A stretch of 10,422 bases of DNA from Oligoflexales bacterium. GTDB taxonomy: Bacteria; Bdellovibrionota_B; Oligoflexia; Oligoflexales; Bog-1112. The notes beneath the pieces were generated by a model that had not been told where the DNA came from, made no database searches, and saw nothing but the letters and a program-made list of their open reading frames with translations. The stretch is from NCBI GenBank assembly GCA_045105515.1, contig JBGCDR010000218.1:1-10422 (forward strand), in the 5' to 3' direction. A program made the position numbers and the translations under genes. This document shows positions 479-9,883 of this stretch, one piece after another; the first letter of the stretch is position 1; each line of letters begins with the position of its first letter.

Positions 479-1090
479 CTACAATTTATAAAGGCCCCAT
501 AGATCTCCACATTCACTCCTCACATCCAATGGCTGAAAACGGGACCCAAACTCTTCCCGAAAATTAGATAGGTAGAAATTCCAACCCTGCTCTGATTTGA
601 TTTCTTGCGTATGATAATCAACCTCGATCACGAACAAAAACCTTGATACCCGTTTAAATTCATCATAGAGACTATTGCGGTCTTCATAAGGTATACGTTT
701 AATGACTGCAGAGGTAAAAATTAAATCGAAGTAATTATCTTCAAATGGAATCTTCATACCATCGTACAACCTAAACTCGCAACTAGGTACTTTATCACTC
801 GCTTCTTCAATAGACCTAGGATTAATATCAACTCCAAACCCTTCAACATCGGTAAATTCATTGCAAATGAAATTTAGTATCAAGCCATTATCGCAGCCAA
901 AATCTAAGATACGTTTTCGCTCCCAAATAACCTGAGCAAGTACCCTAGTAAAAGAAGCTACGGGAGCCTGATATCCGCATTCCTTATAGAAATTCCAAAC
1001 TTCACCCAGTTCTTGTGGGCTTGAATAGTCTTTTTCCAAATTTTTCTTCATTGTTTTATAATCTGATTTTTTCACTTTTAACAAGCCCAA
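479..1090 (-). CDS. Class I SAM-dependent methyltransferase (Methyltransf_11/25-like)
   Basis: Motif I RILDFGCDNG, acidic residue at the end of beta2 (GVDIN), and the IPFEDNYFDLIF motif typical of UbiE/Methyltransf_11-type enzymes. The ORF start is TTG at 1090; an in-frame ATG at 1051 (MKKNLEK) is an alternative start. Confidence 0.85.
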   Translation of the reverse strand: MGLLKVKKSDYKTMKKNLEKDYSSPQELGEVWNFYKECGYQAPVASFTRVLAQVIWERKRILDFGCDNGLILNFICNEFTDVEGFGVDINPRSIEEASDKVPSCEFRLYDGMKIPFEDNYFDLIFTSAVIKRIPYEDRNSLYDEFKRVSRFLFVIEVDYHTQEIKSEQGWNFYLSNFREEFGSRFQPLDVRSECGDLWGLYKL

Positions 1091-1148: not shown

Positions 1149-2078
1149 CTATGGGATTTTTTCGCCAAGCTTCAAGAATTCAAGTTTCTCCGCCACCTGC
1201 GCAGCAACAATTTTATTGTGATCGAAAACAAAATCATGAGGGACTTCCTCAGAAGCTAAGTCTATATCTATATCTGGATAGGTTTCCTGCATTTGCTGGC
1301 AGAAATGTAAAGGTACATAAGGATCCTTATGAGAAAATATCAATGAGATCTTATCTGAATGGTAGTTTAGAAATTGATGGCATTCGTCATCAATTTTTCT
1401 GATAAATTTAATTTCATCCCAGGCAAGTGACAACACATTATTTATTAGCCTAAATTGATGGATATTATCTTCGAGAAGGTACTTGACTTCTTCAGACTGT
1501 CCGCAATACCATTTAAGAATTGACTCTCTTACCTTCTTTGGTAAAGCATGGACTAAACCAGCTAAGCCTTGCCTCAATATGGGTCGAGCTGACAAGCGAA
1601 TAGCTAAAGGTATTCCGATACGTAAGTGCTGAATAGTAGGAAACAATCCAATAAGTTTGAAGACTTTTAAATCCGGAACCCTAGCGAGGGATTTGAAACT
1701 AAGATATGAGCCAAGACTATGACTTAAGACCACAAGCTGTTTTACACTATTGGGAGGTAAACCTAAGCTTGTTGGATGACTTAAAACCAGGTTAAAAAAA
1801 TTTACTTTGTGATCTATTTGAGCTTCTAAACTCACTTCTTCAACTGAACAACTACCACAATGTCCTGCTTGGCTAAGACCTAGAACACCGACTCTCCCAC
1901 AAGATCGACTTAAGATATCATATAGAAATGGACGGTAAAAATGAATTATACCAGGATTCCCAGGAATGAAGATTAGCAGTTTTTCAAGTATCCCACCTTT
2001 AGGTAAGATACTTAAAACTTGTGTCGAAGTCTGTTTTTGACCTACCCTTACCTGATAAGTTTTTTCTATTAAACACAT
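1149..2078 (-). CDS. Alpha/beta hydrolase of the lipid droplet-associated hydrolase (LDAH/DUF2305, yeast YPR147C-like) family
   Basis: Family motifs occur in the expected order: IFIPGNPGxxxFY, GLSQAGH, SLEAQIDHK, nucleophile elbow SHSLG (S121), LFPTI, KDPYVP (D252), VPHDF (H281). Upstream AGGGAG is a possible SD. Confidence 0.85.
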   Translation of the reverse strand: MCLIEKTYQVRVGQKQTSTQVLSILPKGGILEKLLIFIPGNPGIIHFYRPFLYDILSRSCGRVGVLGLSQAGHCGSCSVEEVSLEAQIDHKVNFFNLVLSHPTSLGLPPNSVKQLVVLSHSLGSYLSFKSLARVPDLKVFKLIGLFPTIQHLRIGIPLAIRLSARPILRQGLAGLVHALPKKVRESILKWYCGQSEEVKYLLEDNIHQFRLINNVLSLAWDEIKFIRKIDDECHQFLNYHSDKISLIFSHKDPYVPLHFCQQMQETYPDIDIDLASEEVPHDFVFDHNKIVAAQVAEKLEFLKLGEKIP

Positions 2079-2576: not shown

Positions 2577-2647
2577 GGTCGGCAGACGAGCCATAAATAT
2601 CTTAATCGATCAAAGGTTTGTTCAAGATCAAATCAATCTGCCTAATG

Positions 2648-2653
2648 AAGGAG
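2648..2653 (+). promoter_or_regulatory. Shine-Dalgarno site of the AAA gene
   Basis: AAGGAG 8 nt upstream of ATG 2662. Confidence 0.8.
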
Positions 2654-2661
2654 TTTTACTA

Positions 2662-5600
2662 ATGCAACTCTTCAGCCTATTATCTGCAATTTCTTTAACA
2701 TCAGCTTTCATCACACCTCAACCTGGGGTATATAAGACCAAGAATAGCTTTATAAAAAGAAACCCAGAACAAACTTTTTTTCATCAAAAACACAACAATA
2801 AATTTGATTCTCGATTGATCTTTAACCAACCTTTCCGTCCTGATGTAGGATTAAACTCTTTTTCTTCTTTTGAAGGAGAGTATTGGTTTAAGCGTTATGA
2901 TTCAGTTTTTGCAAGCCCTTACAGTGAGTATAGCCATATCATTCACATCATTGAAGGAGTTCTGCAAAAAAGATCTCTAAACACAGATGAAACCGCATAC
3001 TTGGTTAAATTATTTTCAGATGTGGGACTTCCTAAAGAGTTTGAAGAGTATTTAACAAGCCAAAATAATGAAGATTCCGAGGCTCATGAGACAAAAGAAT
3101 ATACAAACCCAGTGTTCCCAAAAGATGGCACCCCATCTATGACGACTCGCTATCCAGATATTCCTTCTCAACGTTATAGAGACGACATCCCTCGAGAATA
3201 TCGTTTACTTAAAGATCCACGCAGCATTCTCAATAGAAGAAGCGTGGAAGACTTTATAGAAAATAGTAGATTTTCGCTTCAAGATATAAAATATCTCGGC
3301 AAAATGGTAAGAGAAGATTATGAATTTAGATCTAAAGTAAAAAAATACTTGAGCACACCAATCCACCAAAAATTAATTAGTGATGAATTTCTTCCATACT
3401 TTATCGATATCATGAAGTCAATTTATTCGCACTCCACTGATCATGAATTTTATGGAAAGATTCATCATCTCCAAATTAAAACTGAAAATGAAGAAGTGGT
3501 CTCCTTTTATGACTATTTTGCCAGCTCAAAAAGCAAATTAGTAGACCTAAAAAGCCAATTAGAAGATCCAAACCTTACAAATTTAAATAAAATTCATCAT
3601 ATCCTTGGAATTCTTGAATTAAATTATAAAAATGGCAGCCCTATTTCACCTGCAGATCTATGCAGTGTCTTATTGGAAACTCGCAAAAATTATCCAATTG
3701 TATTGATGCATCCTGATATGATTACTGAATTCACCCAAGTTGTTAGCGACCTAAAACATCCTCTAGAAATTATCATTATTGCTAGCTTAGTTGGAGTACC
3801 TCAAGATTATCAGGCAACGATGCTCGAAAAATTTGACCTTGAACAGTCGGAAAAAGAAATTTACCAATGGCTCGGCCATCAAATCGCCAATCTAGATTCC
3901 GACAATCTTGTATGGGTTCTTGATGAATTCTTAACACACCATGTTATTTCAGAGCAATCCATAGCATTTAAACTTGATTTATTATCTAGTAGCAGACACA
4001 GCGAAGCTATCGATAAACACTGGCAAAAATTTGAAAATAACCAAGATTTTGAGTGGTTCGTTAAAATTCTTGTCGACTACTCAGGATTACTAAATAAGCA
4101 AAAACAAGAAAAGTTTACAGCAGAAATTCTCGCATACATAGGTAAAACGAAGCCTATTGATGATAAACGGGACCTAGTTTTAAAAGGCTTAAGAGCTATG
4201 AAGCTTGGTGGATCGTCTAACGTTATAGAGGGAATGATCAAGCAAATTAAAGACGCATGCAACCAAGCATCTCCTGACAAAGATCAAATCATGGTAATGG
4301 TTAACCAATTAATGCTTGAAATGCACCACTGGGAAACAAAAGAATTATTAGACTACATTGTAAACGAGCATGGTGATTCTCGTGCACGCAAACATCAACA
4401 AAATTTAAGCAAGTGGCTAGACAAAAAAACGCATGCCAATTCTATTGATATACAAGGCATTGCCCTTCAAGTTAATGATGATCCTGTTTACCCTCAGATG
4501 GTCCCAGAAAAAGCCAGTGCTGCTCTTGTTATGACTAAAACAGCTAAAAGAGTTCTTAAAAACCTTGCTGGACAGTGGCGAACAGGGAGTGTGACTCTAT
4601 TAGAAGGACCAACCAGCGCAGGAAAAACAAGCTATGTAAAATATATGTCCTATTTAAGCAACTCTCCATATATGCGCATCAACTTATCAGCAAACACAGA
4701 TGTTCGTGACCTTATTGGTCGCTGGGTTGGTGGAGAAGAAAGGTTCCAACCAGACGAACTTAAGGGCTTCTCTGATCGACAACTTAACACCATTGCAAAA
4801 AACATGGGGATATTTGGGGCTAAGGTTAACCGAAATAAAATTATTGAACAGATTTTGTTAACTCAAAAAGAAGCTCATTGGGAAGATGGTCCGGTAGTTC
4901 AAGCAATGCGCCAGGGTATGGTTTTGCTTCTTGATGAACTTAATCTAGCTAAACCTCAAGTAATCGAAGCCTTAAATAGCCTCTTTGATTCAGGGCGCCT
5001 AACCATCGATGATCATGGAGGTGAGGTAGTGCAACTCCACCCAAAGACACATATATTTGCCACGATGAATCCTAGTACTTATGTTGGTCGCAACTCTATG
5101 TCTGAGGCTTTTTTGTCTCGTTGCAACAAACTATGGGTTGAGGCTCCTGACACAGAGGATGTGGTGCAAATTGTTGAAACCCTTTACCCAGGTGTCATAC
5201 CTCAATTAGAACTGGCAAAACTAGTTTCTACTCATGAAGCTCTAACTAACTTAGCTGATCAAGGTCATATAGGTAAAACTCTGGGAGGGATTGCTTACAC
5301 CCTGAGAAACCTATTTAGAGTGGTAGAACGTTATAAATACTTTCATGGAAATACAAACTTAAGTGCAGAGCAGTTACTCCTAAGGGAATTCCGGGAAGTC
5401 TACCTCAGCACAATCACTGATGAAGATGAGCTTAAAATCATAAACGATATTCTATTGCTCAATATGCCTGTTGATGAATCTGATTTCTATACTGACCTGA
5501 ATTTTACCATTAATGCTGATGGCTTCACTATTGGTGATGTAAGGGTTAAGGGCTTAAATTTAAGGCAAAGCGACCTCACACCTGATTTAAGGGATAGTGA

Positions 5601-6447
5601 GGTTGTCATGACTGACCGGACCAAAAAAATCTTTTATAAAATGGTTAAAGCTCTTGAACTCGGAGAACATGTTGCACTTGTAGGGGAACGAGCAAGCGGC
5701 AAAACTATCCTTGCTGAATACTATGCAGCATTGCGAGGTCAGCCATTCTATCGACAAGTTTTTTCTGCGAAATCGGACAATATGGAACTCATCGGTATGT
5801 ACACACCCAATGGTTGGCAAAATGGCTTACTTGTGAGAGCTGGGCTTTCTGAAGAACAAGGTAAAGGTGATTCTCCTGGAGTTTTTTTAGCAGATGAGTT
5901 CAACCAGGCGAATGATGCTGTTCAAGAACGCTTAAACTCATTATTAGATAAGGATCGCACTCTGTTTTTATCCGAAAAAGGTGGCGGAGAAAAAGTCACT
6001 TTCGCCGATGATTTCCGATTTATTGCAGCATTTAACCCCCCAAGTTACGCAGGAAGAAAACGCCTTTCAAAGGCAATGCAAAGTCGTCTCTCAGTACAGT
6101 TCGTTCCTAATTTAGAAAATAAAGAGGAATACCAAATTATTTTCTCTATTATCGCAAAGAAAAAGGGTGTTAGCCAAGGGATCGTTAGACGACTTGTTGA
6201 CCTGCACTTTTGGGTCAAAGAACAGATTGAAGCCAGAGAACTGGGCGATCAATTGATCAAAAATAAATATATTTTCTCCATCAGGCAATTAAGAAATGCT
6301 GTGAAAAGTTTAAGAGTCTTAACCGGTGAACAAGGTGATGTTGTAGATGGGTTTAAACTAGCTGCTGAACTAGTTTACGAGTCCGTATTTGAAAGCGAAG
6401 AGGATAAGGAAAAAGTCAGGACTAAAGTCAAGGAGCTTTGCAGATGA
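2662..6447 (+). CDS. Tandem double AAA+ ATPase (MoxR/dynein-related AAA_5, midasin-like) with signal-peptide-like leader and ~600 aa unknown N-terminal region
   Basis: Module 1: Walker A GPTSAGKT (4606-4629), RINLS..TD..DLIG, Walker B LLLDE (4924-4938), sensor I ATMNP, Arg-finger region AFLSR, sensor II TLRNL. Module 2: Walker A GERASGKT (5683-5706), Walker B FLADE (5884-5898), AAFNP, AMQSR, SIRQL. Strong SD. Confidence 0.92.
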   Translation: MQLFSLLSAISLTSAFITPQPGVYKTKNSFIKRNPEQTFFHQKHNNKFDSRLIFNQPFRPDVGLNSFSSFEGEYWFKRYDSVFASPYSEYSHIIHIIEGVLQKRSLNTDETAYLVKLFSDVGLPKEFEEYLTSQNNEDSEAHETKEYTNPVFPKDGTPSMTTRYPDIPSQRYRDDIPREYRLLKDPRSILNRRSVEDFIENSRFSLQDIKYLGKMVREDYEFRSKVKKYLSTPIHQKLISDEFLPYFIDIMKSIYSHSTDHEFYGKIHHLQIKTENEEVVSFYDYFASSKSKLVDLKSQLEDPNLTNLNKIHHILGILELNYKNGSPISPADLCSVLLETRKNYPIVLMHPDMITEFTQVVSDLKHPLEIIIIASLVGVPQDYQATMLEKFDLEQSEKEIYQWLGHQIANLDSDNLVWVLDEFLTHHVISEQSIAFKLDLLSSSRHSEAIDKHWQKFENNQDFEWFVKILVDYSGLLNKQKQEKFTAEILAYIGKTKPIDDKRDLVLKGLRAMKLGGSSNVIEGMIKQIKDACNQASPDKDQIMVMVNQLMLEMHHWETKELLDYIVNEHGDSRARKHQQNLSKWLDKKTHANSIDIQGIALQVNDDPVYPQMVPEKASAALVMTKTAKRVLKNLAGQWRTGSVTLLEGPTSAGKTSYVKYMSYLSNSPYMRINLSANTDVRDLIGRWVGGEERFQPDELKGFSDRQLNTIAKNMGIFGAKVNRNKIIEQILLTQKEAHWEDGPVVQAMRQGMVLLLDELNLAKPQVIEALNSLFDSGRLTIDDHGGEVVQLHPKTHIFATMNPSTYVGRNSMSEAFLSRCNKLWVEAPDTEDVVQIVETLYPGVIPQLELAKLVSTHEALTNLADQGHIGKTLGGIAYTLRNLFRVVERYKYFHGNTNLSAEQLLLREFREVYLSTITDEDELKIINDILLLNMPVDESDFYTDLNFTINADGFTIGDVRVKGLNLRQSDLTPDLRDSEVVMTDRTKKIFYKMVKALELGEHVALVGERASGKTILAEYYAALRGQPFYRQVFSAKSDNMELIGMYTPNGWQNGLLVRAGLSEEQGKGDSPGVFLADEFNQANDAVQERLNSLLDKDRTLFLSEKGGGEKVTFADDFRFIAAFNPPSYAGRKRLSKAMQSRLSVQFVPNLENKEEYQIIFSIIAKKKGVSQGIVRRLVDLHFWVKEQIEARELGDQLIKNKYIFSIRQLRNAVKSLRVLTGEQGDVVDGFKLAAELVYESVFESEEDKEKVRTKVKELCR
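6430..6447 (+). promoter_or_regulatory. SD and ATGA start/stop overlap (translational coupling)
   Basis: AAGGAG (6430-6435) lies 8 nt before ATG 6444-6446, which overlaps the upstream TGA (6445-6447). This places the start at 6444 rather than TTG 6438. Confidence 0.85.
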
Positions 6448-9110
6448 AATTAACTTTACTGAGCTTAGGTCTTCACTTAGTCAGCGGATTCATGGGTCCT
6501 AACCCAAAGCTTATGAATCGGTTTGTAAACCCTATAACAGTAGACAGAAGTACTACGCCATCATTCCAACATTCAGAAAAAAATCAAGTGCTGAGCATTT
6601 TTTCTTTTAAAGAATCTCATATACCTCTATTTGGAGATGCTAGATCAGATAATTTCGCCCATGAACTAACAGATGAAGAGCTTAGGAAAAAGCTTAATAG
6701 GTTGGAAAGTCTTGCAAAAACTCTTACCGGAGACAAAACCCTAAGCTTAGAATCTGGCGATTCTTGGGCATATAAATCAGACACAAATACTCTTGTTTTT
6801 CCCCGAGCAGATTTGGACTCCATTTCGGAGGAAGCAGCAATTGCTCTCATCGCTCGCGAATCCGGTCATCGTCAATACACTAGCTATCCTCCTGAGGTAG
6901 CTCACAACCCAGCTTTTAAACTTCTTTTCAATACTATTGAGCAAATCAGAATTAATCGATATATGTCAGGTCGCCACCTTGGCTATCATCCTCTAGCATT
7001 CCTTGCTTTCAGACAGTTTCAGGCTGCGGCCAATCAAGTGCCACAAGCAAATGAGCCGCCTCATAAGCAGTTTTGCCTTGGACTCATTGATCAAAGTTTC
7101 GGTCAAAAAAATACACGATGGGCTCAATCTCCACGAGTTAAAAATGCACTTCAGCAAGTTAGAAGTTACGTTGAAGAAGCTACCGAACTTCCCATAGATC
7201 CTAGGGAGATGTTAATAAAAGGTCTATCACCTGAACAAATCATCTCCAGCTCGGAAACAAGCTATGAAATCATCAAAAATAAGATATGGCCAGTTTTCCA
7301 AAGCCTACTAGAGTCAGAATCACAACAAAAGCCTGAGCAGAATTCGGCTAATAGCAACCCTAGTGATGGAAGCCCTGGTGATGGAAGTCCTAGTGATGGA
7401 AGTCCCAGTGATGGAAGTCCCAGTGATGGAAGTCCCAGTGATGGAAGTCCCAGTGATGGAAGCCCTAGTGATGGAAGCCCTAATGATGGAAGCCCTAATG
7501 ATGGAAGTCCTAGTGGTGGAAGTCCCAGTGATGGAAGCCCTAGTGATGGAAGCCCTAGTGGTGGAAGTCCTAGTGGTGGAAGTCCCAGTGATGGAAGCCC
7601 TAGTGATGGAAGCCCTAGTGATGGAAGCCCTAGTGGTGGAAGTCCTAGTGGTGGAAGTCCCAGTGATGGAAGCCCAAGCGAGAGAAGCTCTCAAGGTTCT
7701 AATTCACCTGGGCAGGTAGCTAACAATGAGCAAAATCAGGATTTGGGAGAAATTGCTAAGGAATTACAGCAACAATGGGATCAACTTAGCTCTGAGCAAC
7801 AAAGACAAATTGAAGATCTCGCAAGAGAGTTAGAGAGCAAACTTGGAGAGGCGGATCCCAATAACCTTGAAAATCCTCAACAAAATAGTCAGTCAGAAAA
7901 TAAGCCAACACAGGCAGAAAGTAGCAATCAACCTGCTAGTCCATCAGATGGAGACCAGCCCGAGGATACCCAGGCTGGTGAGGGACAAGACAGTGACAAT
8001 AGCGAACAAGCGGGTGAGGGTGATGGACAGCCAGGTGAGGGTGATGGGCAGCCAGGTGAGGGAGATGGGCAGCCAGGTGAGGGTGATGGACAGCCAGGTG
8101 AGGGTGATGGGCAGCCAGGTGAGGGAGATGGGCAGCCAGGTGAGGGAGATGGGCAGCCAGGTGAGGGAGATGGGCAGCCAGGTGATGGACAAAGTTCAGC
8201 AAGCGATGGTGAAAGAATCAACACTGACTCCATTTCTATTGTAGATTCTGATGAAGGTGCTGGCGGTAATGAAGAAGGCTATCAGCAACACGCAGATAAC
8301 CATCAAAAACTCATGGAAATGATCGAAGAATTCAAACGCCGCAATAACATGCAAAATATCCCAGACTCTTACGAATCCCTTAAAATGCGCAATAAGCAGT
8401 TAATTGACGAGTTAAGTGAAGAGGTTCGTCATATATTCGAAGATGACTCTGAACCCCAATTAGAAGGAGACTACCGTTCAGGCATCTATAATCTCCAAAA
8501 AGCCATTGAATCAAAGGCTCGATCCCAAGCAACCGGTCACAAAGACGACAAAATTTTCTTAAGAAAAAATCATCCCGAGGAAAAAAGTGTAGAGCTTGTC
8601 ATTTGTCTCGATACTTCTGGAAGCATGAGTGGAGAATGCATAACTTACGCTAAGGATGCTGTGGTAGTAGTAGCGGAGATGGCGAATGAGCTCAAGTTTC
8701 CTTGGGGTCTCCTAACCTTTTCAAATAGTGTGGACCTGCTCAAAGAACTCCAAAAATCTGAGAAAGAACATAACTGGGAGCAGGCCCTCGTGGATGCTGA
8801 TGCCAGTGGTGGAACCGATGATTTTGCCGCTCTGGAAAAAGCGGTAGAAATGTTCACAGAATCAGATTCTGAAGCAGAAAAGAAAATAATTCTCTTTATG
8901 ACTGACGGTTCAGGAAACAACAGGCAAAAAGAATATGTAAAACAAATGCAAGAGGAAGGGTATTGGGTAATTGGTATAGGTATTGGCCAGGGGACATCGT
9001 ACGTTGCTGAAACCTATGACCGCTCTGTATATGTTCCAAAAGTGGAAGAACTCCCTTTAGAATTAGCACAGCTTATGCTTGAGCTGCTTAGGGAAGGTAC
9101 TCATAAATGA
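6444..9110 (+). CDS. vWA (MIDAS) domain protein with CobT/midasin-tail-like architecture: leader, degenerate zincin-like N-domain, acidic repeat linker, C-terminal vWA
   Basis: MIDAS DTSGS (8610-8624), Thr in GGTDD (8814-8816) and Asp in MTDG (8904-8906). Long D/E/S/G/P/Q-rich linker from about 7305 to 8330. N-domain motifs RESGH and NTIEQIRIN. Coupled to an AAA gene, as in MoxR-vWA operons. Confidence 0.9.
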   Translation: MKLTLLSLGLHLVSGFMGPNPKLMNRFVNPITVDRSTTPSFQHSEKNQVLSIFSFKESHIPLFGDARSDNFAHELTDEELRKKLNRLESLAKTLTGDKTLSLESGDSWAYKSDTNTLVFPRADLDSISEEAAIALIARESGHRQYTSYPPEVAHNPAFKLLFNTIEQIRINRYMSGRHLGYHPLAFLAFRQFQAAANQVPQANEPPHKQFCLGLIDQSFGQKNTRWAQSPRVKNALQQVRSYVEEATELPIDPREMLIKGLSPEQIISSSETSYEIIKNKIWPVFQSLLESESQQKPEQNSANSNPSDGSPGDGSPSDGSPSDGSPSDGSPSDGSPSDGSPSDGSPNDGSPNDGSPSGGSPSDGSPSDGSPSGGSPSGGSPSDGSPSDGSPSDGSPSGGSPSGGSPSDGSPSERSSQGSNSPGQVANNEQNQDLGEIAKELQQQWDQLSSEQQRQIEDLARELESKLGEADPNNLENPQQNSQSENKPTQAESSNQPASPSDGDQPEDTQAGEGQDSDNSEQAGEGDGQPGEGDGQPGEGDGQPGEGDGQPGEGDGQPGEGDGQPGEGDGQPGEGDGQPGDGQSSASDGERINTDSISIVDSDEGAGGNEEGYQQHADNHQKLMEMIEEFKRRNNMQNIPDSYESLKMRNKQLIDELSEEVRHIFEDDSEPQLEGDYRSGIYNLQKAIESKARSQATGHKDDKIFLRKNHPEEKSVELVICLDTSGSMSGECITYAKDAVVVVAEMANELKFPWGLLTFSNSVDLLKELQKSEKEHNWEQALVDADASGGTDDFAALEKAVEMFTESDSEAEKKIILFMTDGSGNNRQKEYVKQMQEEGYWVIGIGIGQGTSYVAETYDRSVYVPKVEELPLELAQLMLELLREGTHK
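7359..7673 (+). repeat. Coding VNTR, 21 x 15 bp (CCYAGTGATGGAAGY consensus; PSDGS/PSGGS/PNDGS/PGDGS)
   Basis: 315 bp counted as 21 units, in frame within the vWA gene. Confidence 0.97.
8013..8180 (+). repeat. Coding VNTR, 8 x 21 bp (GGTGAGGGWGATGGRCAGCCA; GEGDGQP)
   Basis: 168 bp counted as 8 units that differ only at synonymous positions. Confidence 0.97.
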
Positions 9111-9121
9111 TGGCTTCATTT

Positions 9122-9883
9122 TCAATCCCCTATACCCCTATCGGAGCTTGGCAGTGTTAAAGTCAGAACTAAAGGTGGCTCTATCCCAAAATCTAAGGGT
9201 ATTCTGGGAACATCATCGCAAATGATTCCCAGTCCCTGCTTTTGCAATGGTTGGGCCATGGAATCTAAGTATTTACCAAGCTTTATTCCCCAGATTTGTA
9301 GCCTTAGAAACTTCTTTATAAGGAAAGTCGGGGCTTTTATCCCCTTTTCTAAAGACATTTTTTCATAGACTGGAGCGAGCTTTGCAGAGCGGCCTATAGA
9401 CTCGAGCAAATGTCGCTGCATACAATGATAGTGAGGCTCTGATTCTATCTCTCTTATTGCGAGGATTACCGTATTTAATAATTCTGAATAACTGTTGCTA
9501 AGATTAGCATTAAGCGAACTAATCAAACCGTATGTATCTAAACTCTGTTTTGGATCACCATGTGGAACCAAGGAATCAGACAGACTCGGGCTTAGAGCCA
9601 TGGAAACAAATTCAGAGCACATCAATGGAACCCCTTGTTCTTGCCATAATTTTGCCCGCCAATCAAACCACTTAGCACTGACCCATGTCAAACGCTCAAA
9701 CCAAATAAGTGTATTTGAAACCTTCCTAGATGTACCTCCTGACTGCTGTGCATACAATTCACGCCTGTCTTTATTTAGATCAATCGCTTCTCTAAGATGT
9801 TTGGTAAAACAGTCTCGCTGTCCTGTTTCTGCATAACTTGAGCTCGCCAATACAAAATATAGATATAGAATAAATAACTTCAT
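9122..9883 (-). CDS. Secreted hypothetical protein with a two-fold internal repeat and 4 Cys
   Basis: Sec-type leader MKLFILYLYFVLASSSYA|E. Repeated CxxxHLxExI ... DxxAxxxQxQGxxxxC units. Confidence 0.8.
   Translation of the reverse strand: MKLFILYLYFVLASSSYAETGQRDCFTKHLREAIDLNKDRRELYAQQSGGTSRKVSNTLIWFERLTWVSAKWFDWRAKLWQEQGVPLMCSEFVSMALSPSLSDSLVPHGDPKQSLDTYGLISSLNANLSNSYSELLNTVILAIREIESEPHYHCMQRHLLESIGRSAKLAPVYEKMSLEKGIKAPTFLIKKFLRLQIWGIKLGKYLDSMAQPLQKQGLGIICDDVPRIPLDFGIEPPLVLTLTLPSSDRGIGD

Follow-up and report, generated by a model that had tools for sequence, protein, structure and literature searches.

A two-gene, midasin-type AAA+ ATPase and MIDAS protein pair in an Oligoflexales bacterium

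Midasin (Rea1/Mdn1) is a protein of some 5000 residues that carries six AAA modules, a linker, a D/E-rich tail and a MIDAS domain in one chain, and which serves to remove UBL-domain assembly factors (Rsa4, Ytm1) from pre-60S particles. In an excerpt of one article (PMC3495828), MoxR-like single-module ATPases are held to have produced the six-module chain early in eukaryotic evolution; a passage of another (PMC7973254) gives the canonical large/small subdomain arrangement as common to NorQ/CbbQ-type ATPases and midasin. Here, we describe a gene pair from an Oligoflexales bacterium, found within a window of 10,422 nucleotides (the whole stretch of DNA that was analysed; contig JBGCDR010000218.1), that would belong among the AAA+/vWA remodellers. 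It consists of an ATPase (gene A) and a MIDAS/vWA partner (gene B), with the following features:

2646..2651, + strand: AAGGAG Shine-Dalgarno box of gene A, 8 nt 5' of the ATG (read from the sequence)
2662..6447, + strand: gene A (P0001), 1261 aa, two-module midasin-type AAA+ ATPase (ORF; Pfam; PDB midasin at 1.9e-82)
2662..2712, + strand: signal-like short hydrophobic N-terminal peptide, gene A aa 1-17 (kept in 50-90% relatives; modelled as a helix at 2-13, then disorder to aa 71)
2875..4431, + strand: predicted all-helical, alpha-solenoid-like N-terminal domain, gene A aa ~72-590 (AF2 model)
4489..5463, + strand: AAA module 1 (odd-type) with lid, aa 610-934 (HMM envelope, invariant residues, tree)
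5566..6375, + strand: AAA module 2 (even-type) with lid, aa 969-1238 (HMM envelope, invariant residues, tree)
6444..9110, + strand: gene B (P0122), 888 aa, MIDAS/vWA partner (ORF 6438/6444-9110; Pfam)
6444..6494, + strand: signal-like short hydrophobic N-terminal peptide, gene B aa 1-17 (read from the sequence)
6651..7328, + strand: CobT-like conserved N-terminal domain, gene B aa ~70-295 (conserved in 32 partner sequences)
7329..8363, + strand: acidic low-complexity linker, gene B aa 296-640 (345 residues; net charge -58)
8364..9107, + strand: pre-MIDAS segment and MIDAS/vWA domain, gene B aa 641-888 (Pfam VWA at E 3.3e-14)

The two genes meet in an ATGA overlap (6444-6447), where the AGA TGA end of gene A contains the ATG of gene B, itself likewise preceded by an AAGGAG Shine-Dalgarno box 8 nt upstream; the encoded proteins are estimated from their lengths at ~145 and 97 kDa. 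Promoter and terminator scans showed nothing above chance (14 promoter sites where 16.9 would be expected, and 6 terminator sites where 6.4 would be), and no RNA sequencing runs containing this DNA are listed, the DNA being found in 3 runs of one study, two of which may be its source. Eukaryotic or giant-virus DNA that had been mis-binned is excluded as the origin of the pair: the GC content of the contig is 0.388 versus 0.383 for the genome, and its tetranucleotide correlation 0.969 versus a median of 0.970 (92 genome contigs of 8-15 kb), and the Shine-Dalgarno boxes on both genes, together with the ATGA overlap, counter it further.

Within the gene A protein, the model of the N-terminal domain has a mean pLDDT of 67.9 (about 80-90 for aa 200-510; AF2), with homologues of the domain confined to the near clade; it has no Pfam match. 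A Foldseek search with the model gave nothing from the PDB at E<=0.001, with HEAT/ARM solenoids making up the weak rows, whilst an ESM Atlas structure search returned no usable match. Further along the chain, Pfam recognises AAA_5 (E 2.1e-42) in three stretches, corresponding to module 1, which is split by an insert (helical, and placed after strand 2), and to module 2, along with the midasin lid AAA_lid_7 at 6e-6; the C-terminus lies just 23 aa past the envelope of module 2. Module 1 has a Walker A of GPTSAGKT (aa 649-656, 4606-4629), a Walker B of LLLDELN (4924-4944) and TLRNLFR at 5299-5319, and module 2 has GERASGKT (aa 1008-1015, 5683-5706) and FLADEFN (5884-5904) in the equivalent Walker positions. 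For each module, 49 out of 49 sequences keep Walker A, Walker B, the sensor-1 Asn and two Arg; judged by these residues, both ATP sites are complete and conserved. The invariant Arg pair of module 1, which would go unpartnered in the module order of a single chain, would fit a closed oligomer.

The acidic linker of gene B is rich in Asp and Glu (D+E 20.3%, K+R 3.5%), and part of it is encoded by two tandem arrays, one at 7358-7675 with a 15-nt unit in 21.2 copies and the other at 8013-8189 with a 21-nt unit in 8.4 copies. In the domain that follows, the MIDAS DxSxS motif is D723-x-S725-x-S727 (8610-8624), with GGTDD at aa 789-793 (8808-8822) and MTDGSG at aa 819-824 (8898-8915), and D723, S725, S727 and D821 are invariant in the alignment of the partner family. 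The N-terminal domain resembles the N-terminal parts of CobT/vWA proteins (TM 0.55-0.70, Atlas structure search). A preliminary description of this DNA had proposed ATGA-coupled genes encoding two intact AAA modules, followed by an acidic linker and a C-terminal MIDAS, all of which is borne out by the ORFs, Pfam and motifs; two of the motifs that it quoted, TLRNLFR and VQERLNSLLDKDRTLFLSEKG, are both found in gene A as quoted.

Searched against PDB sequences at E<=1e-3, gene A returns ten: five midasins (1.9e-82 to 7e-80), two CbbQ, two NorQ and one CobS. The preference for midasin holds for the whole AAA part (1.9e-82 versus 1.5e-10 for CbbQ), for module 1 alone (1.1e-88 versus 2.1e-12 for CbbQ) and for module 2 alone (8.6e-58, with NorQ at 2.1e-3 the sole other PDB match). 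As a single sequence, gene B finds the Rea1 MIDAS (6qt8) at 4.9e-5; with a profile of the partner family the Rea1 MIDAS again comes out best at 9.3e-19, ahead of CobT (4.5e-15) and NorD (8.7e-8). At the level of sequence, then, no other solved family comes as near to either gene as midasin does. Gene A is also set apart from MoxR proper: AAA_3 matches at 8.8e-9 over a partial stretch only, and without AAA_lid_2 (Pfam), and in the trees the three MoxR (AAA_3) proteins of the same genome are separated from it by a branch of 2.1-2.5 substitutions per site. A search of the 7,797 ORFs of this bacterium with the modules recovers gene A and a paralogue alone, the next match lying at 1.2e-4.

A more conventional explanation would be that the pair is an ordinary maturation chaperone of the MoxR/CGN type (compare NorQ-NorD, CbbQ-CbbO and CobS-CobT), performing metal insertion into, or activation of, one enzyme, with an ATPase that is merely internally duplicated and a midasin likeness that is functionally meaningless. 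Taken singly, the modules do superpose on CbbQ over 261 aa at Z 21.7 and on NorQ over about 250 aa at Z 20-21, the partner has the layout of CobT as well as the CobT score given above, and the trees place CbbQ among the odd-type modules. Set against this, midasin scores tens of orders of magnitude above CbbQ and NorQ; CbbQ_C (PF08406) has no match in gene A at E<=0.01 (Pfam), and the scores for GvpN (TIGR02640, 86.6 versus a cut-off of 266.8 bits) and CobS (TIGR01650, 17 versus 558.55) fall far below their family cut-offs. No candidate client enzyme adjoins the pair, whether in the window, at the paralogous locus or at the loci of genome G054, and the window contains neither cobN nor cobalamin genes; its neighbouring genes encode an LDAH-like hydrolase, a methyltransferase, an acylphosphatase and a secreted protein of unknown family, with no evident substrate gene among them. 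Moreover, the N-terminal domains of relatives differ (LRR+MORN, HEAT, F5/8 type C, an ankyrin neighbour), which suggests protein targets that change. Taking both sides together, we think a maturation chaperone unlikely.

A structural model of the module pair (pLDDT 90.5, pTM 0.87) superposes best, as a single body, on AAA3-AAA4 of Mdn1 (residues 859-1498; Z 25.2, rmsd 4.1 A over 501 residues, 26% identity), and on neighbouring module pairs of dynein with Z 20-25 over about 530 residues at 14-18% identity; the geometry of the modelled pair is compatible with a ring. For the AAA pair together with gene B aa 600-888, complex prediction gave a score of 0.40, with one of the three runs at 0.01 and the best of three controls at 0.00; the runs share at least 13% of contacts, and partner pLDDT is at least 72. 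In calibration, 116 of 157 solved complexes attained the mark, as did 2 of 215 mismatched pairs, with scores at or under 0.60 accounting for only 18 of the 157 together with both of the passing mismatches. The prediction thus lends weak support to a contact between the products of genes A and B, and its pass may reflect likeness, because NorQ-NorD complexes are among those solved.

Multi-module proteins provided 88 modules for a tree, in which a single branch parts 45 odd-position from 43 even-position modules with zero mismatch, those of midasin included, where the sole module found in P0221 was assigned as even after its tree position was seen. In the pruned tree this 'parity' branch has supports of UFBoot 88 and SH-aLRT 90, with module 1 grouping with the odd midasin modules and module 2 with the even ones. 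Adding the single-module CbbQ, MoxR, a 725-aa family and P0234 (103 rows) leaves backbone supports of only 6-18 (UFBoot) and 72-92 (SH-aLRT), with module 2 of P0234 outside the even group; support for the parity branch is therefore good in the pruned data set only. The tree sets exclude dynein modules, and the ~600-aa 'midasin' matches (P0278, P0282, P0283, P0289 and others) were treated as fragments of eukaryotic midasin, because they lie inside its AAA3, AAA4 and AAA5 clades, and dropped from later trees. Lineage-specific duplication of one module is rejected by the AU test (p-AU 0.021). Specific pairing of module 1 with the AAA3 clade (p-AU 0.28) and of module 2 with the AAA4 clade (p-AU 0.098) is neither shown nor rejected, the ML tree instead uniting midasin AAA2/4/6 (93/85), with no bacterial module nested inside any one midasin module. 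Two earlier proposals find support in these comparisons: that the modules are midasin-like rather than ordinary MoxR modules agrees with the per-module PDB searches and the long branch to MoxR, and that they track consecutive positions of the Rea1 ring agrees with the AAA3-AAA4 superposition and the odd/even placement.

Signal-like N-termini are present in the proteins of both genes, in their paralogues and in the 50-90% relatives, and suggest a machine that may work at the membrane or beyond. If these peptides are cleaved Sec signals, the ATPase would be sited where there is no ATP, which a remodeller model leaves unexplained. An S-[AG]-F ending is not a genome-wide feature of signal peptides, occurring in 166 of 1195 signal-like ORFs and in 383 of 3269 others. 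We also dismissed a link to the Bdellovibrio MIDAS adhesin Bd0875, a ~380-aa lipoprotein for which the excerpted text of its source (PMC11003981) mentions no AAA partner.

The same N-termini would suit a pair of secreted or injected effectors that came from eukaryotic midasin through ancient gene transfer (an AAA3-AAA4 piece plus the MIDAS) and that act in cells of a eukaryotic host or prey, with their supply of ATP. This idea would also draw on the F5/8 type C domain of one relative, on the neighbouring LDAH-like hydrolase, whose family is typical of eukaryotes, and on the AAA3 and AAA4 pairings left unrejected by the AU tests. The ML trees speak against it, in keeping midasin AAA2/4/6 apart from un-nested bacterial modules, as do the identity to midasin, at only 23-33%, and the relatives without such N-termini that occur across Myxococcota, Margulisiibacteriota, Elusimicrobiota and Thermoproteota; a link to a secretion system was not seen. 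We hold such an origin to be very improbable.

A vWA gene follows the gene A homologue in all five of the loci that could be judged (the window, L009, L010, L035 and L037; L036 ends at a contig edge), so that the A-then-B order, for which a check of neighbourhood conservation had been proposed, is conserved; a related-locus search of the genome contigs returned one locus only. The pair belongs to a group in which an odd and then an even AAA_5 module lie in one chain, with ATP sites intact and the MIDAS adjoining or fused. Fused bacterial relatives (by NCBI names) include HEAT-AAA-AAA-vWA (P0161), AAA-AAA-vWA (P0229) and vWA-HEAT-AAA-AAA (P0258, P0263) arrangements. Beyond these are 'giants' (P0397, P0183, P0195 and P0188, the last named as from a Thermoproteota archaeon) that have three tandem module pairs each, with one C-terminal vWA apiece in P0397 and P0183 (Pfam) and probably a C-terminal MIDAS in P0188 and P0195, where gene B matches their C-terminal ends. 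The odd and even modules of each giant cluster by protein, and the triplications are therefore independent. No literature on prokaryotic two- or six-module midasin-like proteins was found, although Iyer et al. 2004 and Snider & Houry 2006 may mention bacterial relatives; the expectation that this architecture was not a characterised family thus stands for the literature searched.

The pair has a patchy distribution, occurring in 3 of 131 genomes of the phylum (two copies in this genome and three in G054), as might be expected if it were a MoxR-vWA type of counter-invader or conflict system (Kaur et al. 2020, PMC7159879), in which the variable N-terminal domain would recognise a protein of the invader and the AAA-MIDAS core would set off a response. 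The N-terminal repeat domains that differ among relatives would fit such a role, as would the expandable tandem repeats of the linker, the gene B protein having 888 aa versus 797 aa in an 87% relative. Against it, neither gene, nor any conserved neighbour, has an effector domain (nuclease, protease, TIR or similar), a third core component like that of the ternary systems was not seen, and PADLOC yielded no more than two AAA matches, both below threshold (1.8e-5 and 7.3e-5) and neither with a stretch that passed alone; we regard a conflict role as quite improbable.

Synthesising these observations, we consider it fairly probable that genes A and B encode the two parts of a midasin-type machine that remodels proteins, driven by ATP. 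Gene A would provide a covalent pair of odd-type and even-type AAA+ modules behind an alpha-solenoid N-terminal domain, and three copies would most likely close as a six-module ring, an arrangement that is supported, if unproven, by the natural single chains having three pairs and one MIDAS. Gene B would act as a detached 'tail', in which a CobT-like N-terminal domain is joined by a flexible acidic tether of ~345 residues to the MIDAS domain, whose metal site would take an acidic residue of the target as its sixth ligand. By analogy with midasin and NorQ-NorD, the MIDAS domain may then dock on or in the ring, such that ATP hydrolysis would pull on the bound target; both the A-B contact and the pulling mechanism are inferred from these systems.

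We also put forward, as a real possibility that we nonetheless lean slightly against, that midasin-type rings go back to an ancestral prokaryotic block, namely the odd/even AAA pair together with its MIDAS partner, working as A3 plus B. The six-module midasin of eukaryotes would have arisen through triplication of the pair and fusion with its partner, a course of events repeated independently at least four times in prokaryotes, and the window would hold the unfused, ancestor-like state, which in this Oligoflexales clade would also have been sent to the membrane or exported. Were this so, the window would contain an ancestor-like form that is experimentally tractable. A prokaryotic two-module unit, whose halves correspond to odd and to even positions of midasin and which has been triplicated repeatedly, offers a concrete intermediate through which the origin of single-chain AAA rings can be tested. 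Consisting of two genes, the bacterial pair is also a small model for the coupling of a MIDAS on an acidic tether to an AAA ring, something that is hard to study in a midasin of 5000 residues.

In comparison with midasin itself, gene A shares AAA_5 modules with a midasin-type lid, of odd and even types that match AAA1/3/5 and AAA2/4/6, and gene B shares an acidic tract followed by a MIDAS, though on a separate chain. The pair differs in having two modules rather than six and two chains rather than one, in missing the ~1700-aa linker domain (gene B has only a CobT-like domain of ~225 aa before its acidic tract), in adding an alpha-solenoid N-terminal domain to gene A and a CobT-like one to gene B, and in having a bacterial host without pre-60S particles, Rsa4 or Ytm1. 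NorQ-NorD and CbbQ-CbbO likewise consist of a separate ATPase gene and then a vWA/MIDAS partner gene, and their single-module folds match with Z 20-22; those ATPases, however, have one module per chain and form homohexamers, whereas gene A has two modules, lacks CbbQ_C, scores far more weakly to them than to midasin, and has no client enzyme gene nearby. CobS-CobT provides the layout of gene B, with a helical N-terminal domain, an acidic linker and a C-terminal vWA, but CobS is single-module. Compared with the dynein ring, the gene A pair has no stalk, microtubule-binding domain or linker, and dynein for its part has no vWA partner. The six-module AAA-MIDAS giants have the same odd/even pair and the same MIDAS tail; relative to these, the gene A pair stands alone with its MIDAS in a separate gene, and so represents the unfused form.

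The window spans an entire contig (C218, 10,422 bp), and the gene pair on it lies in DNA whose GC and tetranucleotide make-up is typical of its genome (6.29 Mb in 461 contigs, 90.9% complete), the closest named relative of the window being an Oligoflexales MAG with 87% protein identity. From 2662 to 9110 the plus strand is occupied by two ORFs sharing an ATGA overlap, each with an AAGGAG box 8 nt before its ATG:

479-1090, minus strand: ordinary class I SAM methyltransferase (Methyltransf_25, 3.4e-13)
1149-2078, minus strand: LDAH-like hydrolase, 309 aa (PF10230, E 9.5e-44)
2662-6447, plus strand: gene A, ORF of 1261 aa
6444-9110, plus strand: gene B, ORF of 888 aa counted from ATG
7358-7675, plus strand: tandem array in the gene B linker, 15 nt x 21.2, in frame
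8013-8189, plus strand: tandem array in the gene B linker, 21 nt x 8.4, in frame
9122-9883, minus strand: product of 253 aa carrying a classical signal peptide, conserved in the locus of the 87% relative (L010, 12383-13153)
9961-10245, minus strand: acylphosphatase (E 1.6e-19)

Walker A and Walker B each occur twice in gene A, which matches AAA_5 in three stretches (E 2.1e-42), together with the midasin lid AAA_lid_7; Pfam recognises no domain in its first ~600 residues. Gene B ends in a vWA domain (Pfam, E 3.3e-14) with a complete MIDAS motif, preceded by a low-complexity linker of 345 residues and net charge -58, in which the two arrays encode SPSDG-like and GEGDGQP repeats. This tether seems to vary in length, as the partner has 888 aa here versus 797 aa in the 87% relative. 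ORFs, Pfam matches, motifs and linker charge thus bear out the preliminary description of an ATGA-coupled pair encoding two AAA modules, an acidic linker and a MIDAS.

Compared with all PDB sequences, the whole of gene A matches five midasin sequences (E 1.9e-82 to 7e-80), CbbQ (1.5e-10), NorQ (4.2e-8) and CobS (6e-4). Midasin is also far ahead for each module searched separately, an affinity that the preliminary description had anticipated: module 1 gives 1.1e-88 (CbbQ, 2.1e-12), and module 2 gives 8.6e-58, its sole other match being NorQ at 2.1e-3. Among the 7,797 ORFs of the same genome the modules find gene A and one paralogue only (next match 1.2e-4), and the three canonical MoxR (AAA_3) proteins encoded there are remote from them. 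A profile of 32 partner sequences, run against PDB sequences, matches the Rea1 MIDAS domain (E 9.3e-19), CobT (4.5e-15), full-length midasins (~3e-12) and NorD (8.7e-8). The N-terminal domain of gene B (aa ~70-295) is conserved throughout these 32 partners, and its closest likeness in the Atlas structure search is to the N-terminal region of vWA proteins of the CobT kind (TM 0.55-0.70).

In both modules an alignment of 49 sequences shows strict conservation of Walker A, Walker B, the sensor-1 Asn and two Arg. An AlphaFold2 model of residues 601-1261 of gene A (pLDDT 90.5, pTM 0.87) was used as a Foldseek query, the first 50 rows of which are all dynein motors (TMq 0.56-0.64). On re-alignment with VIA-align the S. 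pombe Mdn1 ring ranks first (Z 25.2, rmsd 4.1 Å over 501 residues, 26% identity), the matched stretch being chain 859-1498, that is AAA3-AAA4; dynein module pairs follow (Z 20-25, 14-18% identity), and CbbQ and NorQ match single modules (Z 20-22). This best superposition indicates that the modules are modelled in the arrangement of two neighbouring ring positions. The N-domain of gene A is an α-solenoid in its model (pLDDT 67.9), for which no significant match was found in the PDB; it is a candidate target-binding unit, a role that HEAT, LRR or ankyrin units might play in relatives.

Modules excised with an HMM from Walker-A-anchored seeds were placed in four trees (FastTree, 123 rows; IQ-TREE fast, 136 rows; IQ-TREE with UFBoot, 103 rows after thinning and 88 rows from multi-module proteins only), all built without dynein, RavA, CobS and GvpN sequences. 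In all four, the first modules of the pairs group with midasin AAA1/3/5 and the second with AAA2/4/6. In the 88-row tree all 45 odd-position modules lie on one side of a single branch and all 43 even-position modules on the other (UFBoot 88, SH-aLRT 90), and midasin AAA2/4/6 form a clade (93/85). The 103-row tree, which retains CbbQ, MoxR, a ~725-aa family, two single-module proteins and the long-branched P0234, leaves the grouping unchanged with a backbone UFBoot of only 6-18 and module 2 of P0234 misplaced. CbbQ falls among the odd-type modules; the sole module found in P0221 was assigned to the even type after the fact. The match to two consecutive Rea1 modules put forward in the preliminary description, taken as AAA3 and AAA4, is not rejected (AU p 0.28 for module 1 with AAA3, 0.098 for module 2 with AAA4), but is not the maximum-likelihood result. 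A private duplication, with modules 1 and 2 as one clade, is rejected (AU p 0.021, delta lnL 56).

A word-based search of 8,000 candidates returned 728 proteins at E<=1e-3. Among the best 120 of these are four close relatives (84-90% identity), eight proteins at 50-55%, some without the N-domain (721-745 aa), about 25 at 37-45%, from 'Deltaproteobacteria' or Archangiaceae where a source is named and with very different N-termini (LRR+MORN, PF20030 or none), and eukaryotic midasins at 23-33%. The family is rare in the phylum (3/131 genomes): the source genome has two copies, its congener is another carrier, and a further genome of the order (G054) has three distant ones. Gene order is conserved, with the ATPase followed by the vWA gene in all five judgeable loci, and one more locus stopping at a contig edge. 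The second, paralogous pair of the source genome (L009, contig C231, 3746-7954 and 7945-10143) encodes an ATPase of 1402 aa, 51% identical in the AAA part, and a vWA partner of 732 aa, and has as neighbours secreted proteins of unknown type and one FGE-sulfatase-like protein. In G054 (L037, contig C185) a 952-aa ankyrin-repeat protein is encoded at 28-2883, directly upstream of a distant AAA-pair and vWA operon. The ~725-aa proteins (P0073, P0079, P0093, P0112; JGI label 'midasin', 30-35% identity) are another two-module family, found on contigs up to 7.6 Mb, whose first module falls, in the trees, where the odd and even groups meet.

When gene B was compared with 1.84 billion representatives and the matches were characterised by Pfam and by source name, two more kinds of relative emerged. 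Fused bacterial forms comprise P0161 (HEAT-AAA-AAA-vWA), P0229 from Margulisiibacteriota (AAA-AAA-vWA), and P0258 and P0263 (vWA-HEAT-AAA-AAA). The others are giants with the AAA pair three times in tandem: P0397 (4486 aa), P0183 (4471 aa), P0188 (4005 aa, named a Thermoproteota archaeon, with six modules as three odd/even pairs) and P0195 (7557 aa). Pfam places a single C-terminal vWA in P0397 and P0183; the MIDAS of P0188 (a MIDAS-like region, residues 3769-4003) and of P0195 is known solely from the gene B match at their C-terminal ends. P0397, which clusters with Margulisiibacteriota proteins, has three nearly identical repeats of N-domain plus AAA pair before its vWA, with one Walker A string common to the three odd-type modules, reflecting either a very recent triplication or a long-repeat assembly effect. 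Odd modules cluster by protein in all four giants, as separately do even modules; the triplications were hence independent.

Both products begin with a short hydrophobic, signal-like stretch, a trait shared with the paralogous pair and with relatives at 50-90%; Myxococcota relatives have none. Either of two readings may apply. The basic residues after the hydrophobic stretch fit a membrane tether, with the bulk of the protein cytoplasmic; a cleaved Sec signal would put the ATPase where ATP is absent, unless delivered into another cell. The window neighbours, which are common only with L010, give no clue to the substrate, and a look through sequencing runs turned up no RNA data for the window. 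The PF10230 (lipid-droplet-associated) hydrolase, of a family typical of eukaryotes, adjoins the pair also in L010 (4251-5156); the secreted 253-aa protein, whose gene is convergent with gene B and separated from it by 11 nt, has no match in Pfam, NCBIfam or PADLOC.

Taken together, these observations best support an A3B-type machine. In it, three chains of two modules would close into a six-module ring, on which the MIDAS protein, gripping its target through the metal site at the end of its acidic tether, would dock as in Rea1 and NorQ-NorD, such that ATP hydrolysis could then exert a pull; PMC13036017 reports Rea1 docking and a NorD finger within the NorQ pore. The ring is suggested by the natural occurrence of chains that combine three pairs with a single MIDAS, by the ring-like arrangement in which the pair is modelled, and by ATP sites and arginines that are intact in both modules. 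The fused relatives and conserved gene order suggest that A and B are in contact. Complex prediction lends weak support: A with B passes at 0.40 (best control 0.00), on a mark reached by 116/157 solved complexes and 2/215 mismatched pairs, though at scores of 0.60 or below by only 18/157 solved complexes and by both passing mismatches. Runs have at least 13% of contacts in common and the partner pLDDT is at least 72, with one of three runs scoring 0.01; the pass may be due to resemblance to NorQ-NorD complexes, which are already solved.

The preliminary description had allowed that this architecture might already be characterised; in the literature searched, in which older work is only partly covered, midasin-type proteins with two or six modules are not described from prokaryotes. 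PMC3495828 and PMC7159879 take MoxR as the closest prokaryotic relative and have the six-module chain arise early in eukaryotes. The gene A product stands outside the single-module CGN, MoxR and CobS families, and the pair is not midasin proper, since two features that define midasin, six modules in one chain and the ~1700-aa linker domain, are absent, and a third, the release of UBL-domain factors, acts on pre-60S particles, which a bacterial host does not have; it is a variant form of the AAA+/vWA remodellers.
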